Shown here piece by piece: positions 52,881-61,562 of a stretch of 64,000 bases of DNA (the first letter of the stretch is position 1; every line of letters begins with the position of its first letter). The notes under the pieces are model-generated. The model saw nothing but the letters and a program-made list of their open reading frames with translations, had not been told where the DNA came from and searched no databases. The position numbers were made by a program, and so were the translations under genes. The stretch comes from Bacillales bacterium UBA3566 (lineage in GTDB: Bacteria > Bacillota_I > Bacilli_A > Izemoplasmatales > Izemoplasmataceae). The stretch spans positions 1,339-65,338 of the forward strand of contig DFNN01000135.1 of the NCBI GenBank assembly GCA_002376065.1, given 5' to 3'.

Positions 52881-52917
52881 TAAAAATACGGCAAACAATT
52901 GGATTATTGTTTGCCGT
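52881..52917 (-). terminator. terminator of the hyd-like operon
   Basis: ACGGCAAACAAT / ATTGTTTGCCGT 12-bp stem. T-rich tail on the minus strand. Confidence 0.8.
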
Positions 52918-52926
52918 TTAATTTTG

Positions 52927-54684
52927 TTAATCTTTGTAGTATTTTCTTGGAGAATATTGAATATGTAGTAAATCTTGTGCAAGTTCAGAACCAATATGTT
53001 TGAAGAAGTCATTATAGATATTTGATGCTTCTTCAGAATAACAATTATAACGAATTTCTTTATCATTAACTGAGTCGTTTAAAGCTTCTGCACGTAAGCC
53101 AATGACGTTAAATCCATCTTGTACTTTTGATGGTTGAATTGGACTTCCACCACCTACAACGTTGCTATTTTGTGATGATGCCATTTCGACATAATCATAC
53201 GTCTTATTAACCGCTTTTAATACTCTAAAGAATTCTTTTATAGATTTCACATGACTGATTCTTGCGATAGATATTTTTTTACCATTTAGATGATAGCTAG
53301 CCTCTTCAATTTTTTCGTTCTCTTTTGAAGGTGTAAAAGTCATTTCCTGTACATCTTCTTGCAATAACTGAGAAGCAGTCTTGAAAGTAGCTTCAGCAAA
53401 TCCAATATTAGGATGTAATACATCTTCCTTGAATACCTTGCTTGCAAGTTCTCCATGAGGTTTGCTTGATGGAGCAAGAGCTAATAAATCAATTCCTTGA
53501 CGTTTTAGTAGTCTTGCAAATTCACTAGTTGTAATAACATGATCAACATCTGCTAATCCACGATAACTATTTCCAGAACGTTTTGCATCATGTTTACGAT
53601 CAATTCTAGGTACAACTGCTACAACAATTGTGTCTGCTTTGTTGTAACCTAATTTTTCTGCAAAATAGTGTTTAACAAGAGCACCTGCAACTAGCTCAGC
53701 CGGTTTTGCACTTGTAACGTTTGACAAATAATCTGCTTCGTATTGTTCGATGTATTGCATCCATCCAGGTGCATTTGAAGACAAAAATGGAGTAGATTCA
53801 TCTTTAGAAAGACGATCAATTAACTCATTACTTTCCTCGATGATTGATAAATCCTTACCTAATGAATAATTCATTACATCGTCAAATCCTAACAATTGAT
53901 AAGCTTCGTTTAATTGACCTTCAACGTTTGCTCCTAATTTCGCTCCAAAATCTTCAGCAACTGTAACAGCAACACTTGGAGAAGGAATGATAATTACTTT
54001 TTTAGTTTCATCTTCTAGTGCGGATAACACATTATCTACTTCAGGTTTAGGTTTGATTGCAGCGACAGGACAAACTTCGATACATTTTCCACACTCAATA
54101 CAACCACTATCAGCCATACTATGAAATAAAGCTGGACCAACATAAGTTTCATTTCCACGTTCATTAAAATCTAAAATATTTAATTCGGTGAACTGCTTAC
54201 AAGCACTAACGCAGCGACCACATAAAATACATTTTCCACTATCTAATAAAATCGAGTCAGAAGTGTCATTTATTTGGCGGTCTTTTTTAAAGAAATCTCG
54301 CAAGTTTTCTCCGAAAACATTATCAACGTCATAACGACGCATTAAATTAAGTAGTTCACAACTTGTTTCGCGGTCACATGCCCAGCATTCAAACACATGA
54401 TTACTCGCAAGTAATTGCAAGTTTTGTATAATAGAATCACGAATTTCTTTTGAATCAGTTTCAATTTCCATTCCATCTTGTAATGCAAGTGTACATGAGT
54501 TTTTTAATCCTCGCATATTTTTTACATTTACAACACATAAACGACATGCACTTGTTTCGTTAATATCTTTTAGAAAGCATAGTCTAGGGATATTATAACC
54601 CATTTCTTCTGCTGCGCGCATTGCTGTATAGTTTTCAGGGACAGTGGTTTCAATACCGTTGATTGTAATTTTCACATTTTTCAT
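52927..54684 (-). CDS. HydA-like [FeFe]-hydrogenase-family subunit with intact accessory Fe-S motifs but a degenerate (Cys-less) H-cluster site
   Basis: N-terminal 2Fe-2S motif (C..CRLC..C), HxxxCxxCxxxxxC, and two CxxCxxCxxxC ferredoxin motifs are present. The H-domain aligns throughout with clostridial HydA. However, TSCCPGW reads SSNAPGW, MPCxxKxxE reads VPRIDRKHD, and MACxGGCxxGGGQP reads ASSQNSNVVGGGSP. Confidence 0.85.
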   Translation of the reverse strand: MKNVKITINGIETTVPENYTAMRAAEEMGYNIPRLCFLKDINETSACRLCVVNVKNMRGLKNSCTLALQDGMEIETDSKEIRDSIIQNLQLLASNHVFECWACDRETSCELLNLMRRYDVDNVFGENLRDFFKKDRQINDTSDSILLDSGKCILCGRCVSACKQFTELNILDFNERGNETYVGPALFHSMADSGCIECGKCIEVCPVAAIKPKPEVDNVLSALEDETKKVIIIPSPSVAVTVAEDFGAKLGANVEGQLNEAYQLLGFDDVMNYSLGKDLSIIEESNELIDRLSKDESTPFLSSNAPGWMQYIEQYEADYLSNVTSAKPAELVAGALVKHYFAEKLGYNKADTIVVAVVPRIDRKHDAKRSGNSYRGLADVDHVITTSEFARLLKRQGIDLLALAPSSKPHGELASKVFKEDVLHPNIGFAEATFKTASQLLQEDVQEMTFTPSKENEKIEEASYHLNGKKISIARISHVKSIKEFFRVLKAVNKTYDYVEMASSQNSNVVGGGSPIQPSKVQDGFNVIGLRAEALNDSVNDKEIRYNCYSEEASNIYNDFFKHIGSELAQDLLHIQYSPRKYYKD

Positions 54685-54695
54685 TGTTCAACCTC

Positions 54696-56486
54696 CTACG
54701 TTGTAATGATCGCATCAACTGGACAAACGTTTTGACATGCGCCACATTTGATACAAGCCGATTGATCAATCGTATGTAATTGTTTAATGGTTCCTGAAAT
54801 ACAGTCAACAGGACAGTTTTGAGCACATTTTGTACATCCGATACATTTATCAGTGATAAAGAAATTGATTAGCGCTTTACAAACTCCACCAGGACATGTT
54901 TTATCAACTACATGAGCTTCAAATTCATCTCTAAAATGATCTAGCATAGATAGAATTGGGTTAGGGGCAGCTTGTCCAAGACCACAAAGTGAAGAACTTT
55001 TAACCATTTTTGCTAAAGTTTCAAGTTGATCAATTGTTTCTAGTGTTCCATGTCCTGAAGAAATGATGTTTAGCATTTCAAGCATTTTCTTTGTACCTTC
55101 ACGACAAGGAGTACATTTACCGCAAGATTCGTCAACAGTGAAGTCTAAATAGAATCGGCAAATATCGACCATACAGCTGTCTTCATCGATGACAACCATA
55201 CCTCCAGACCCCATCATAGAACCTGCATCAATTAATGTTTCATATTCAATCGGAATATCAAGTAAGTGTTCAGGAATAGCACCACCTGAAGGTCCTCCTG
55301 TTTGAACCGCTTTTAAAGCTTTATTGTTTGGAATTCCTCCACCAATATCATAAATAACATCGCGTAAAGTTGTTCCAAGTGGAACTTCCACGAGTCCAGC
55401 ATTTACGATGTTTCCACCTAAACTGAACACTTTAGTTCCTTTGTTTTTATCAGTTCCAACACGGCCAAACCATTCTGCGCCATTAAACATGATGGCAGGA
55501 ATGTTTGCTAACGTTTCTACGTTGTTGATGATTGTAGGTTTTCCCCATAATCCTTTAGCTGCTGGGAATGGTGGTTTATTACGAGACATACCACGTTCAC
55601 CTTCAATAGAAGCGATTAATGCAGTTTCTTCTCCACATACAAATGCTCCTGCACCTAAACGAATTTCAATATCAAAACTAAAATCTGTTCCAAAGATATT
55701 ATTACCAATCAAACCAAGTTCTTTTGCTTGTTTGATTGCATTTTTCAATTTCTCAATTGCAGTTGGATACTCAATTCTTACATAAATATAACCTTTACTT
55801 GCACCAATTGCATATCCGGCAATCATTAGACCTTCCAATATACTGTGAGGATCTCCTTCTAAAATGGCACGATCCATAAATGCCCCTGGGTCACCCTCAT
55901 CAGCGTTACAAATAACGTACTTTTGATCGCTATCGTTGTTATAAGCAAAGCCCCATTTGACACCAGTAGGGAATCCTCCCCCACCTCGACCACGTAAACC
56001 TGATTCAGTCATTTCATCAATAACTTCTTTAGGAGTCATGTCAAGTAATGCTTTACCTAAACCACGGTAACCATCTTTTGCGATATACTCTTCTATATCA
56101 TCAGGATTGATAAATCCACAGTTACGCATTGCAATTTTATATTGTTTTTTGTAGAAACGAACTTCATCTAATGCAAGAACTTCTTTGGTTTCTGTTAATG
56201 CATCATTAAAAACAAGCTTTTCTACTATACGACCTTTGTATAGATGTTCTTCACAAATTTCTTTTATATGTTTTGGTTTGATTTGTGCATAAAAAACACC
56301 CTCAGGATATACGATAACAAAAGGTCCTTGCTCACATAACCCAACGCACCCTGTATTTACCAATTTTATTTCACTTCTTATGTCTAGTCTGTCTAAATGT
56401 TCTTCAAACTCATCACGCAACGTTTTCGCACCACGTGAGACACAGTTAGAACCACTACAGATTAGAACGTGTGCTCTTTCTAACAT
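54696..56486 (-). CDS. HydB/NuoF-like NADH- and FMN-binding Fe-S subunit
   Basis: N-terminal thioredoxin-like 2Fe-2S domain, FMN site GRGGGGFPTG, CGKCTPCREG 4Fe-4S motif, and two C-terminal CxxCxxCxxxCP ferredoxin motifs. Confidence 0.92.
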   Translation of the reverse strand: MLERAHVLICSGSNCVSRGAKTLRDEFEEHLDRLDIRSEIKLVNTGCVGLCEQGPFVIVYPEGVFYAQIKPKHIKEICEEHLYKGRIVEKLVFNDALTETKEVLALDEVRFYKKQYKIAMRNCGFINPDDIEEYIAKDGYRGLGKALLDMTPKEVIDEMTESGLRGRGGGGFPTGVKWGFAYNNDSDQKYVICNADEGDPGAFMDRAILEGDPHSILEGLMIAGYAIGASKGYIYVRIEYPTAIEKLKNAIKQAKELGLIGNNIFGTDFSFDIEIRLGAGAFVCGEETALIASIEGERGMSRNKPPFPAAKGLWGKPTIINNVETLANIPAIMFNGAEWFGRVGTDKNKGTKVFSLGGNIVNAGLVEVPLGTTLRDVIYDIGGGIPNNKALKAVQTGGPSGGAIPEHLLDIPIEYETLIDAGSMMGSGGMVVIDEDSCMVDICRFYLDFTVDESCGKCTPCREGTKKMLEMLNIISSGHGTLETIDQLETLAKMVKSSSLCGLGQAAPNPILSMLDHFRDEFEAHVVDKTCPGGVCKALINFFITDKCIGCTKCAQNCPVDCISGTIKQLHTIDQSACIKCGACQNVCPVDAIITT

Positions 56487-56497
56487 CTTCTCACCAC

Positions 56498-56863
56498 CTA
56501 TATTCTATATTTACCAATGACATAATCATCTACAACTTTGCCACCAATAATATGTTCTTTTATGATACGATCTACTCCATCAACATCAACCTTGCAGTAA
56601 GTCGTTCTTTTGTCGTCAATTAGTACCTCAACGATTGGTTCAATAGCACACTCACCGATACACCCTACAGGTGTAATCGTAACGTTTTCTAGATCTTGTT
56701 TATCAACTATTTCAACAAACCTATTCATTACTGGACGTGCACCAGCACTGATTCCACAAGTAGCCATACCAACAAGAACACGAATACCATCGTTTTTCCC
56801 GCGCATTGTTACTTTCTTCTGTGCATTATCTCGAATCTTTTTTAAATCATCTAAAGATTTCAT
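56498..56863 (-). CDS. thioredoxin-like [2Fe-2S] ferredoxin
   Basis: 121 aa. GMATCGISAGA and GCIGECAIEP motifs typical of the small ferredoxin encoded in HydABC operons. Confidence 0.8.
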   Translation of the reverse strand: MKSLDDLKKIRDNAQKKVTMRGKNDGIRVLVGMATCGISAGARPVMNRFVEIVDKQDLENVTITPVGCIGECAIEPIVEVLIDDKRTTYCKVDVDGVDRIIKEHIIGGKVVDDYVIGKYRI

Positions 56864-57417
56864 TTTGTTTCCTCCTTATGTATATTGTTAAGTCCTTCTC
56901 TTATATATTCTTTCATCCATTGCGTTACTCCGTGCGCAGTGAATGGTGTATCCTCTAATATTTCTCGAATTTTTCTAGTATCAAATTCGAATCTATTTTC
57001 ATTATATTGGTGACTATAAAATATATCAATGAATTTATCATTTAAAGCTAATATAACTAATGTATCTTCGATATCTCCAAGCGGAGCCAAATCAATATGA
57101 TCTAACTCAAATGTCGCTTTAATTTTTGTACCTATTTGTTCTTTTGATTCAATCTTTAGTGTACCGTTGGTCGCTTCTGCTGACATTTTGAATAAGGAAA
57201 TACCCAGACCAACTTTTCTTGTTGTTCTAGTGGTATAAAAAGGATCGGATACATGAGATAAAGTTTCTTCATTCATACCATGTCCATCATCAATAATTTC
57301 AATAGATAAACTATTTTTTTCGGTGTTTTCCACTATGAAAATTTGGATTAATGAGGCATTTGCATTGATAGAGTTTTGGCAAACATCTAATATATGAAGA
57401 GACAATTCTTCCATCAT
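56860..57417 (-). CDS. stand-alone GHKL (HATPase_c) ATP-binding protein
   Basis: 185 aa. N-box LDVCQNSINA, G1 DDGHGM, G2 GLGISL. No HisKA or phospho-acceptor His region. Confidence 0.7.
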   Translation of the reverse strand: MMEELSLHILDVCQNSINANASLIQIFIVENTEKNSLSIEIIDDGHGMNEETLSHVSDPFYTTRTTRKVGLGISLFKMSAEATNGTLKIESKEQIGTKIKATFELDHIDLAPLGDIEDTLVILALNDKFIDIFYSHQYNENRFEFDTRKIREILEDTPFTAHGVTQWMKEYIREGLNNIHKEETK

Positions 57418-58115
57418 TTTTCACCTCTTAAATAATCGAAAAATGCATCAATCGTTTTTTCCTTTAAATCAATATAATTGGTTTTTTCTGAAATCATTGG
57501 TAAAGAATGTGCATCAGAATTATGAAAGATTTTATATTGGGTTAAAGAAGGATATTTTTTTAAGAAGGGATCGATGTTTTGACTTTGCAATTCTACGCCA
57601 TCAAATTCAAGTTCTTCTAAAGAGTAAGTATCTAAAGGTGTCTGACTAGGCCTATCAATATGAGCTAATATGATTGCACCATCAAGTTTTCTAACCTTGG
57701 TTATTAAGTCTTTATAAGCGATACTAGTATGTGTCAGTGGTCTTTCTACAGTATCTATTTCAGTATCATAAACATCTGTAATTACTTGATCACTTTCAGA
57801 AAAATTCTTCCATTCTCCATCGAGATGGACTTGTAAAAATTGATCAAATGTTGCTGCATCTTCGTATGTACGAAAATAGCATAGTGCATCAAAATTTTCA
57901 TTTACAGTCACTTCAACAGCTGGAATATATAAGAAATCATAAGAATCTTCTAACTGTCTAATTGTAGGTAGTTGTCTAGTTGAATTGTGGTCTGTAATTG
58001 CAACAATATCAAGACCTTTTAACATTGCCATGTTTAGAACATTATTGGGGGTCATAAGTTCATCTGCGCAAGGGGATAAAATGGAATGGATGTGCAAATC
58101 ATAAAAGAGTTTCAT
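57414..58115 (-). CDS. PHP-domain phosphoesterase
   Basis: YDLHIHSILSPCAD, ITDHNS, and HNSDAH metal-binding histidine motifs. Confidence 0.75.
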   Translation of the reverse strand: MKLFYDLHIHSILSPCADELMTPNNVLNMAMLKGLDIVAITDHNSTRQLPTIRQLEDSYDFLYIPAVEVTVNENFDALCYFRTYEDAATFDQFLQVHLDGEWKNFSESDQVITDVYDTEIDTVERPLTHTSIAYKDLITKVRKLDGAIILAHIDRPSQTPLDTYSLEELEFDGVELQSQNIDPFLKKYPSLTQYKIFHNSDAHSLPMISEKTNYIDLKEKTIDAFFDYLRGEK

Positions 58116-58447
58116 TTTCCATCCAACTTTGCAAGCGCAATAATTGCATCAACGGTTGAGAAAGTAGTTGTAAATAGTGGGATATTTAACTCGTTTGCTT
58201 TATCAATCAGTTCTTTTTTTACAGTAATTCCTTGTGTAAAAACAATACAAGAAAGATCGTTTAAACTAGCGACACCGATAACGTTAATATTATTGAGCAT
58301 TGTAATTAAACAATCATTTTCTTCAGTTTGTCCCATTACATTGCTCAATAAATCTGATGCGAATAGTTTGTTGACGGTTTTTGTTAAATCGTGAACTGAA
58401 TTAATAAGTGTGAAAGTCTCATGATTGGCAATATCATTTGTGGTCAT
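58112..58447 (-). CDS. DRTGG-domain-like protein
   Basis: 111 aa. LITMLNNINVIGVASLNDLSCIVFTQG...ELIDKANELNIPLFTT resembles the DRTGG fold pattern. Confidence 0.5.
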   Translation of the reverse strand: MTTNDIANHETFTLINSVHDLTKTVNKLFASDLLSNVMGQTEENDCLITMLNNINVIGVASLNDLSCIVFTQGITVKKELIDKANELNIPLFTTTFSTVDAIIALAKLDGK

Positions 58448-58471
58448 GAATATACACTTCCCATACTTTTT

Positions 58472-58894
58472 TTATTGTTGTGTGTAAAATTTCATAAACA
58501 GTTGGGTTCCTTCTTCATTTGATTCTAATGTCATTTCATCTGAAACAGCTTTGATATTTGGTAATCCCATTCCAGCACCAAATCCATTTTCAATTGCATA
58601 TGGACTAGCAGTGGAAAATCCAGCTTGCATTGCGTTTTCAATGTTAGGTATACCTGGTCCTCGATCGCAAAAAGTGATTTCGCATAAATCATCACCAATA
58701 TGAATTCTCGCATTACCACCATAGGAGTGGATAACAACATTAATCTCAGCTTCATACACACCGATGGTTACACGCTTGATAAATTGGGGACTAAATCCTC
58801 GTTTTTTTAACTCTCGCTTAGTCAAACTTGCAATGGTCCCAGCGTTTCCAATATCATTACGTTCAATTGGATACTCTTCTAAGTAATCACTCAA
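58472..58894 (-). CDS. RsbW/SpoIIAB-like GHKL ATPase (anti-sigma-factor-type Ser kinase fold)
   Basis: 140 aa. EAEINVVIH N-box, DRGPGIPN G1, GFGAGMGLPN G2. Confidence 0.7.
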   Translation of the reverse strand: MSDYLEEYPIERNDIGNAGTIASLTKRELKKRGFSPQFIKRVTIGVYEAEINVVIHSYGGNARIHIGDDLCEITFCDRGPGIPNIENAMQAGFSTASPYAIENGFGAGMGLPNIKAVSDEMTLESNEEGTQLFMKFYTQQ

Positions 58895-59283
58895 GAATTT
58901 TCTTCCTCGAGAACAGACTCGTAGCTCTTAACGCCGTTCATAAATAATAAACCACTTGTTCGATACATTGTTAAAGCAGTACCAATCAAAGTAATGCCGA
59001 TTTCATCAGCTAAATCAATAACTGATTGTGAGGGAGTTTTTCCTCGAACGAAGATTATTGTTTCTAAATCTAGTATTTCTGCTGTACGCAAAGCTTGATT
59101 TGTCACCAAACCAGTAACAAGTGCACCATGAGCTCCAATATGGCTAGGCATTTTTTTGAGTAACATAAGAGCATCACTCATCAAATCACAAACAAAAGCA
59201 TAATTGATTTCTTTGACACATTGTGGACATTCCAAATTAAATTGTTTTGCTTCTAAAAGAGTTAAAACGTCATTTAATTCCAT
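58891..59283 (-). CDS. DRTGG-domain-like protein
   Basis: 130 aa. GALVTGLVTNQALRTAEILDLETIIFVRGKTP...VIDLADEIGITLIGT. Confidence 0.5.
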   Translation of the reverse strand: MELNDVLTLLEAKQFNLECPQCVKEINYAFVCDLMSDALMLLKKMPSHIGAHGALVTGLVTNQALRTAEILDLETIIFVRGKTPSQSVIDLADEIGITLIGTALTMYRTSGLLFMNGVKSYESVLEEENS

Positions 59284-59768
59284 TATTTTTTCCTATATTC
59301 TTTGATCAATTTTTTTGCTTTTGTGATTGTCATTTCACCATGTACATCTTCGTCAAAACTCATTACTGGAGCCATTCCACATGTACCAATACAACGTATT
59401 GCTTCTAAAGTATAATAACCATCTTCCGTTGTCTCACCAACTTCAAGTCCTAATTCTTTTTTTACAGCATCTAAGATTACTTGTGCTCCACGAACGTAAC
59501 ATGGAGTACCCAAACATGCGGCAATTGTGTGTTCCCCTTTTGGGATCATTGTAAAACTTGAATAAAAGGTGACTACACCGTTGATTTCAGCAATGGTTAC
59601 ACCCGTTGCTTCTGAGACGATTTTTTGCACCTCTAAAGGAATACATCCAAAAATTCTTTGTGCTGAATGCAGTATTGGCATTAGCGGTCCAGGGTTTTTG
59701 AGATGTTCATCTATCTCTTGAAGTAATTCTTGTTTTTTGTCTTCGGATATTTCAAAATTCTTACCCAT
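59283..59768 (-). CDS. HydC/NuoE-like [2Fe-2S] subunit
   Basis: 161 aa. CLGTPC (Cx4C) and CIGTC (Cx3C) thioredoxin-like 2Fe-2S motifs. Confidence 0.9.
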   Translation of the reverse strand: MGKNFEISEDKKQELLQEIDEHLKNPGPLMPILHSAQRIFGCIPLEVQKIVSEATGVTIAEINGVVTFYSSFTMIPKGEHTIAACLGTPCYVRGAQVILDAVKKELGLEVGETTEDGYYTLEAIRCIGTCGMAPVMSFDEDVHGEMTITKAKKLIKEYRKK

Positions 59769-60062
59769 AATCTTCTCCTTACTGAAATATTATTTTAGAT
59801 TCCAAACAATTATAACATAATTGTAATTTTTTATAAAGTCTATGAGAAGAAAATTCCAGTTAATTTTTAAACTTTATAAATAAAAATAAAGGCTTTTGTA
59901 AGGCCATTTAAAGAATCAAAAAAGAAGAATTTCGCCTTTACAATTATGAACAAAATATAATATATAATAATTCTTAATAATAATTATGAGATTTTTCAAT
60001 TCATAGTTGAGTTTTCTTGGAGTGTATTGTATGATAAGAATATCAAAAATGAGGTGAATCTG

Positions 60063-61232: not shown

Positions 61233-61298
61233 TTTTTTGACTTTTACATTATTATATAGTAATATTATTTAATAATAATATAAAAGGGAGAGTTGATT

Positions 61299-61562
61299 GT
61301 GGATAAAAGAGATATTTTGGCGACTATATCCAATAAAAACAGATATAAAATCATTCATGCTTTGTTAGAGTATGAACAGTTAAATGTATCTGAAATCATT
61401 GCTTTGACGAAACTAAAGCAAGCAAATACATCAAGACATTTAAAAATACTAACTGATAAAAAGATTATCAAAGGGTTTCAAAAGAAACACTTTGTTTTTT
61501 ATCGTATTCGAAAAGAGTTCTTATCGACTCATTATCAATTAATCAAGTATTTGATGATTTAA
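61299..61562 (+). CDS. ArsR/SmtB-family transcriptional regulator
   Basis: Winged HTH: NRYKIIHALLEYEQLNVSEIIALTKLKQANTSRHLKILTD. GTG at 61299 is better spaced from the GGGAG RBS than the track TTG at 61293. Confidence 0.65.
   Translation: MDKRDILATISNKNRYKIIHALLEYEQLNVSEIIALTKLKQANTSRHLKILTDKKIIKGFQKKHFVFYRIRKEFLSTHYQLIKYLMI

Follow-up and report, generated by a model that had tools for sequence, protein, structure and literature searches.

A sensor-less copy of the HydS (M2e) accessory cassette within a hyd operon of Izemoplasmataceae and its possible role as an ATP-driven switch

The stretch of DNA analyzed here (64,000 nt, referred to as the window) comes from Bacillales bacterium UBA3566 (Izemoplasmatales, Izemoplasmataceae; assembly GCA_002376065.1, contig DFNN01000135.1, positions 1,339 to 65,338). 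On its minus strand, five packed genes at 56860-59283 lie between hydC and a 2Fe-2S ferredoxin (Fdx) gene and encode, in this order, a DRTGG-like protein (DRT1), a SpoIIAB-like GHKL ATPase (GHKLa), a DRTGG protein (DRT2), a PHP phosphoesterase (PHP) and a histidine kinase (HK)-type GHKL ATPase without HisKA (GHKLb). This cassette is a sensor-less copy of the cassette that accompanies the putative sensory hydrogenase HydS (M2e), an identity that is well supported, and we infer that it may act within the hyd operon as an ATP-driven partner switch on the redox complex. The probability of this reading as a whole is put at about 0.6.

The cassette and the HydS neighbourhood

An alignment of PHP homologues yielded 80 loci from named genomes (loci are cited by L numbers), and nine proteins of the window were mapped onto them. 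Exactly the nine-gene order of the window was found at 46 loci, which belong to Izemoplasmatales, Acholeplasmataceae, Anaeroplasma and some Bacilli metagenome-assembled genomes (MAGs). Among the carriers of the sensor-less operon, Paracholeplasma vituli (L050) is a cultured organism. In Oscillospiraceae, Christensenellaceae, Caloramator, Acetivibrionales, Tissierellia and Erysipelotrichaceae, the row is interrupted between GHKLa and DRT2 by an additional gene (390-443 aa). The encoded protein combines two Fer4 motifs with an Fe_hyd_lg_C domain in which SSACP replaces TSCCP, with PF04060 and with a C-terminal Cx2Cx4Cx16C motif, which agrees with the architecture of the M2e or group D putative sensory hydrogenase according to Land et al. 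(PMC8163306). HydS was located between GHKLa and DRT2 at 16 loci (L054, L056, L059, L060, L065-L067, L069-L073, L076-L079). Four Erysipelotrichaceae loci have the window order plus HydS, ten genes in all, and a fifth, L078, has the same order and is cut at PHP. In the window, the HydS gene is absent from this place and a spacer of 24 nt (58448-58471) is all that lies between GHKLa and DRT2, indicating, with the same genes surrounding HydS in relatives, that the window carries the HydS cassette minus HydS.

The five accessory genes are present in the order of the HydS cassette, and their orthology is supported by a tree of the five concatenated proteins, in which 57 sensor-less rows of Mycoplasmatota type fall on one side of a fully supported branch and at least three changes of HydS state are required. 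The window cassette belongs to the HydS cassette family in all but HydS itself. The closest known system is the HydS neighbourhood of TamHydS of Thermoanaerobacter mathranii and of TTE0887, Cthe_0335, Csac_1857 and Athe_1292 upstream of TR(M3) hydABC, which has the five accessory proteins in the same order and linked to a hydC-(GHKL)-Fdx-hydB-hydA operon. In Clostridium thermocellum the genes in question are those just upstream of Cthe_0335 and those from it to Cthe_0340-0342, and in Caldicellulosiruptor bescii those around Athe_1292, up to Athe_1297. The window differs from it by the 24-nt spacer in place of HydS, by the position of the cassette within the operon between hydC and Fdx instead of upstream, and by a linked HydA without H-cluster ligands.

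Parts of this neighbourhood have been noted before. An HK-like ATPase flanks the M2e hydrogenase gene (PMC8163306). For six model thermophiles and clostridia, Carere et al. listed M2e genes that precede TR(M3) hydABC by five genes, and remarked on their "proximity to protein kinases" (PMC3561251). HydDB names the sensory class [FeFe] group C1 "histidine kinase-linked (putative)" (PMC5037454). The DRTGG and PHP components and the sensor-less form were neither described nor assigned a function in the open literature searched, in agreement with a preliminary description of this DNA, according to which no function had been assigned. The papers found to name DRTGG concern CBS-pyrophosphatases, Pta and similar proteins, not hydrogenases or PHP, and searching by locus tag gave transcript-level mentions only. 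The preliminary description had recognized a module of five domains, which holds; the identity of the set as the HydS cassette minus the sensor was absent from it.

Operon layout and properties of the five proteins

All five open reading frames described earlier as packed or overlapping were found at their coordinates on the minus strand. They form part of a single packed row of nine genes (52927-59768, minus strand) that runs from hydC through the cassette to the ferredoxin gene, hydB and hydA. The first gene, hydC, encodes a NuoE-like 2Fe-2S subunit (59283-59768; PF01257, 153 bits), and a putative promoter-like site (TTTATA-17-TATAAT with TG; 59809-59837, minus strand; consensus match only) lies upstream of it. 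Downstream of the cassette, a thioredoxin-like 2Fe-2S ferredoxin of HydD type (56498-56863) is encoded; this gene is also present in cassette-free orthologous operons and is thus counted among the hyd core members. It is followed by hydB for the NuoF-like flavoprotein subunit (54696-56486; domain profile matches), the hydA homologue (52927-54684) and a terminator-like hairpin 3' of hydA (52888-52917), all on the minus strand.

The hydC and DRT1 genes share 1 nt, 4-nt overlaps were found at the DRT1/GHKLa, DRT2/PHP, PHP/GHKLb and GHKLb/Fdx junctions, and the sole gap within the cassette is the 24 nt from GHKLa to DRT2. The Shine-Dalgarno sequence of the ferredoxin gene, AAGGAGGAA, sits in the final codons of GHKLb, unchanged across five genomes. 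These overlaps, including that of DRT1 and GHKLa, which resembles spoIIAA-spoIIAB, indicate translational coupling, and the cassette is predicted to be expressed together with the nine-gene operon. The region's best promoter-like match (57001-57029, minus strand; TTGATA-17-TATAAT, 11 of 12 matches) falls within the GHKLb gene, ahead of that for the ferredoxin. As an internal promoter it was rejected as probably a chance match, being kept in L089 and not in L090, L001 or L020.

DRT1 (58891-59283, minus strand; 130 aa) is a divergent protein of DRTGG fold and the best conserved of the cassette, with invariant DxMSD, TGL, RTAE and VRGK. The profile search gave no Pfam match for DRT1 itself; its profile matches the DRTGG structures 3l2b and 2ioj, its AlphaFold2 model (pLDDT 87.8) superposes on 2ioj (Foldseek E 3e-7, TM 0.71) with the HPr kinase N-domain as the next structural match, and two members of its family, P0166 and P0252, exceed the Pfam DRTGG cut-off. 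DRT1 is also a paralogue of DRT2 (hhalign probability 99.4%, E 1e-21), a DRTGG-domain protein of 111 aa (58112-58447, minus strand) that matches PF07085 with 37.1 bits against a cut-off of 25.2 and has an invariant DLxS. The two proteins have a single invariant motif in common, DL(M/L)S, located where the first strand ends, which makes Ser36 of DRT1 and Ser35 of DRT2 candidate phospho-site serines. In the DRT1 model, TGL follows the second strand, RGK follows the third in place of the family TGG, and an invariant Thr follows the fourth, so that the invariant residues would be placed where a Rossmann-like fold binds phosphate. The DRTGG domains of CBS-pyrophosphatases, of the phosphotransacetylase N-terminus and the HPr kinase N-terminal domain have the same fold as DRT1 and DRT2; unlike these domains, DRT1 and DRT2 stand alone, with about 110-130 aa, and the name-giving TGG is an invariant RGK in DRT1.

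GHKLa (58472-58894, minus strand; 140 aa, TTG start) matches HATPase_c_2 (PF13581) with 43 bits against a cut-off of 27.4. Its top NCBIfam matches are SpoIIAB and RsbW, both under their equivalog cut-offs (42 bits vs 135 for SpoIIAB), and its best matches in the PDB are SpoIIAB structures (1til and 1l0o, E 8e-6). The N, G1 and G2 boxes are intact (E48/N52/H56, D77xGPG and G104FGAGMGL), and the ATP-binding boxes of GHKLa and GHKLb are at least 95% conserved among 72-79 homologues. GHKLb (56860-57417, minus strand; 185 aa) matches HATPase_c (PF02518) with 56 bits, the domain starting at residue 9. Neither the domain profiles nor the AlphaFold2 model (pLDDT 90.6) gave a HisKA/DHp domain, the model having a conserved alpha/beta C-terminal domain and no DHp hairpin. 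Both proteins are predicted to be competent for ATP binding. The gene for GHKLb was found directly before the ferredoxin gene wherever hydABC is present, and otherwise after PHP.

The PHP protein (57414-58115, minus strand; 233 aa) is a predicted metal-dependent phosphoesterase. It scores 20.7 bits against PF02811, under the cut-off of 26.4; the ligand set HxH, DH, E, H, DxH (H8/H10, D42H43, E68, H152 and D201xH203) is conserved in 79 homologues, its profile matches the PHP protein TM0559 (E 9e-8), and homologues at 53-62% identity have precomputed PF02811 matches. The enzyme is predicted to be competent at its metal site. The five domain assignments hold, those of GHKLa, DRT2 and GHKLb by Pfam score, that of PHP through its ligands and the TM0559 match, and that of DRT1 through fold and paralogy. 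A defence-system reading of the locus was also tried and rejected: PADLOC gave no matches, and the TrlF and Ppl matches of PHP were far under their cut-offs.

A nucleotide second-messenger module, in which PHP would degrade a signalling nucleotide and the DRTGG proteins would be its receptors, is suggested by the nearest named relatives of PHP, namely 3',5'-nucleoside bisphosphate phosphatase, RNase RNM and RNase AM-like exoribonuclease, and by the occurrence of DRTGG domains in nucleotide-regulated inserts of CBS-pyrophosphatases (PDB 3l2b). The matches to these PHP families, however, are all far below their cut-offs, the nucleotides of CBS-pyrophosphatases bind the CBS domains, and the cassette has no nucleotide cyclase or synthetase. 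Such a module is considered improbable.

Presence, absence and selection of the cassette

The cassette stands next to hydB at 63 of the 66 loci where this could be assessed. In the order of the window, DRT1 was detected in 42 of 151 sampled genomes (15 of 33 genera) and HydB in 131 of 151; in 33 of the 42, DRT1 and hydB share a contig and are 2.7-4.2 kb apart, and in the other 9 a contig end cuts the cassette. The association with HydABC-type operons that had been anticipated for the five-gene set is borne out by these counts. At two loci the cassette is directly upstream of an rnfCDGEAB(-like) operon and not of hydABC, in a Tissierellia MAG (L066:252-9557) and a Clostridiaceae MAG (L075:33-6853); the former has HydS and the latter is cut at DRT2.

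Cassette-free genomes have hydC-Fdx-hydB-hydA between the same flanking genes, with HydB 76% and HydA 71-75% identical to those of a cassette-bearing relative. When orthologous operons with these common flanks are compared, the cassette therefore appears as a single five-gene indel that separates hydC from Fdx, indicating that it comes and goes as one block and that the enzyme is independent of it. On this comparison, the cassette is read as an accessory and dispensable unit, not a structural part of the enzyme.

These operons also bear on a reading without signalling, in which the five proteins would help to assemble the flavin/Fe-S complex or control its quality, the GHKL ATPases serving as chaperone or clamp and PHP hydrolysing a nucleotide or pyrophosphate. 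The tight translational coupling to hydC and Fdx would suit such a role, as would the GHKLb model, which superposes on the N-terminal fragments of MutL, PMS2 and Topo VI-B over 165-200 columns at E about 1e-5. Against it, orthologous operons with 71-76% identical HydB/HydA lack all five genes, three HydABC clusters in the same genome are cassette-free, some cassettes stand alone, and GHKLa is closest to anti-sigma kinases. An assembly function is thus rated unlikely.

Every H-cluster cysteine is lost from the HydA of the window (SNAPGW, VPRIDRK). Among the compared loci, such loss was found only in the window and in two other Izemoplasmatales, L019 (13435-15138; TSKAPGW/MPNISSK) and L022 (13374-15179; SSSAAGW/APGIDRK), and the other Mycoplasmatota keep TSCSPGW, MPC and CxGGC. 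The nearest relative of L019 in the cassette tree, L017, keeps the H-cluster cysteines, so the loss has probably been repeated in cassette-bearing operons. In almost all cassette-linked HydA proteins (e.g. L001:12537-14285), TSCSPGW takes the place of TSCCPxW as the first H-cluster motif; L014 (13428-15182) has TSGCPGW.

The MAG of the window, G000, is 85% complete with 0.8% contamination, and its one cassette is to be read as the one found; the host is described as a wall-less marine bacterium. Three further hydC-(Fdx)-hydB-hydA clusters were identified in it (C5:2020-6444, C6:10372-14549 and C1:766-4204), and neither the cassette nor GHKLb was found in any of the three. Full H-cluster motifs are present in the C5 (TSCSPGW) and C1 (TSCCPGW) clusters; in C6, TSCCPAW and MPCVAKK were seen before hydA leaves the contig end ahead of the third motif. 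HydG and HydF score above their family cut-offs (C43:27573-30122). The organism is predicted to still make H2-active enzymes, with the window's operon alone lacking the H2-reactive site. Elsewhere in the MAG (C70:4577-12281), a 566-aa HydA-like gene, in which only MPCTSKK was found by pattern, lies head to tail with rnf-looking genes.

The metagenome relatives L089 and L090 are syntenic with the window through both flanks and share its degenerate HydA motifs. In the close relative L088 (9630-11192; JGI sample 3300000499), the hydB call is split in three (263, 194 and 48 aa); the nearly identical contig L089 has an intact hydB of 596 aa, and the split probably reflects frameshift errors in an old assembly and not decay. 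Ratios of nonsynonymous to synonymous substitution (dN/dS) among the window, L089 and L090, rough values with dS near or above 1, were 0.01-0.05 for DRT1, about 0.07 for GHKLa, about 0.09 for DRT2, 0.06-0.10 for PHP and 0.09-0.14 for GHKLb, alongside 0.04-0.05 for HydB and 0.08-0.11 for HydA. All five cassette genes are under purifying selection (dN/dS 0.01-0.14) in these three genomes with H-cluster-less HydA.

The cassette could also be a functionless relic left after the loss of HydS and the H-cluster: both H2-reactive parts are gone from the window's operon, and the whole cassette has been lost in related genera. This explanation is strongly disfavoured and was rejected on dN/dS; DRT1 remains 95-98% identical between genomes with dS about 1 or more, all catalytic motifs are intact, and the sensor-less form is kept in the 42 genomes and 15 genera counted above. 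With the sensor and the H-cluster gone and the companions still under selection, the role of the cassette is probably not H2 sensing as such. The earlier suggestion of a role apart from H2 chemistry itself is strengthened by the loss of HydS, the loss of the H-cluster, purifying selection and the rnf-linked copies.

A possible ATP-driven switch and what it means

We propose that the cassette functions as a switch driven by ATP, with the design of a partner-switching module but other components. GHKLa would bind, and probably phosphorylate, the translationally coupled DRT1 encoded upstream, and perhaps DRT2, at the serine of the invariant DL(M/L)S; this is proposed because the DRT1-GHKLa pair mirrors spoIIAA-spoIIAB, where the gene of the small alpha/beta protein comes first and is overlapped by that of the kinase. 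PHP would reset the phosphorylated DRTGG state. DRT2 and GHKLb would then relay the state to the flavin/Fe-S complex of HydC/Fdx/HydB/HydA type, or to Rnf in other genomes, a coupling suggested by the constant position of GHKLb before the ferredoxin gene when hydABC is present. Where HydS is encoded, the sensor would give H2 or redox input, and in the lineage of the window another input may serve, for example ATP/ADP or the redox state of the complex. We infer all three elements: that the DRTGG proteins become phosphorylated, that they are what PHP acts on, and that the complex is the target. The post-translational gating of the complex put forward in the preliminary description is likewise putative.

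In the partner-switching modules SpoIIAB-SpoIIAA-SpoIIE and RsbW-RsbV-RsbU, a small GHKL ATPase gene likewise directly follows and overlaps the gene of a small alpha/beta protein, and a phosphoesterase gene belongs to the same unit; unlike them, the cassette has DRTGG instead of STAS, PHP instead of PP2C and no sigma factor. By analogy, the cassette would work most like such a module, yet it fails three of the four defining features. The resemblance to partner switching drawn in the preliminary description is confined to the SpoIIAB-like ATPase. Two-component sensor histidine kinases offer the other comparison: HK CA domains (KinB 3d36, E 6e-10; WalK 3sl2) are the nearest match to the ATP-binding domain of GHKLb, but GHKLb lacks HisKA/DHp, the region of the phospho-acceptor His and a sensor domain, and no response regulator accompanies it.

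Several observations weigh against the switch. The kinase, phosphatase and binding roles of the cassette proteins are all putative, and domain profiles of the operon proteins revealed neither a STAS protein nor a PP2C phosphatase or sigma factor. Nucleotides and RNA are the substrates of the closest characterised PHP relatives. GHKLb also resembles clamp ATPases of MutL type, and Foldseek returned HK CA domains and MutL-type N-terminal fragments alike, so that kinase and clamp are not separated by it. Two cassettes, L054 and L065, stand alone with no redox complex nearby. Fusions gave no further link: the 952 clusters that a DRT1 profile matched at E <= 1e-10 in 1.84 billion representatives included no informative fusion, nearly all being stand-alone proteins of 114-130 aa and one long match resembling a gene-call fusion with a SPOR protein, and no fusion was seen in the best 120 of at least 8000 HydS homologues, all of about 435 aa. 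Finally, the concatenated tree, being unrooted, does not decide between loss and gain of HydS; loss is the likelier of the two.

Alternatively, the cassette may be the upstream part of a signalling chain whose transcriptional output, through a DNA-binding regulator encoded elsewhere, sets hyd expression, the mode of action commonly supposed for sensory hydrogenases. An AraC-type regulator stands beside TamHydS and a regulatory role was proposed by Land et al. (PMC8163306), the cassette has no output domain of its own, and a small regulator gene of ArsR/HTH_5 type lies 1.5 kb upstream of the operon (61293-61562, plus strand), syntenic in L089 and L090. The cassette, however, is located inside the operon to be regulated and translationally coupled to its structural genes, no regulator gene accompanies it across the 80 loci, and it keeps its place beside different targets (hydABC and rnf). 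Such an output is regarded as doubtful, although less so than the assembly function, and an ATP-driven switch acting on the redox complex is preferred.

For the HydS family, the value of the window lies in what has been removed from it. Little is known about the functional complex or the interaction partners of TamHydS in its native host (2026 study, PMC13104023), and the five cassette proteins are fixed companions of the group D sensor. The lineage of the window provides a natural dissection, in which the sensor gene and the linked H-cluster are gone and the companions are still strongly selected, and in sister genera all five companions have been deleted together. Selection without sensor or H-cluster, together with this joint deletion, indicates that the companions form one functional unit that is not needed by the enzyme and has a function independent of H2 sensing. 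New here are the pairing, under purifying selection, of a sensor-less cassette with a HydA devoid of the H-cluster, the clean presence or absence of all five genes as one indel when orthologous operons are compared, and the cassette-free HydABC paralogues in the same genome, with full H-cluster motifs in two of three. A tentative further possibility is that the cassette is an H2-independent, self-contained regulator of ferredoxin/NADH redox machines (HydABC-type and Rnf), in which DRTGG would replace STAS, PHP would replace PP2C and HydS would be an optional input. If this is true, the sensor-less and H-cluster-less operon would be the minimal natural form of a new partner switch in which to study it.

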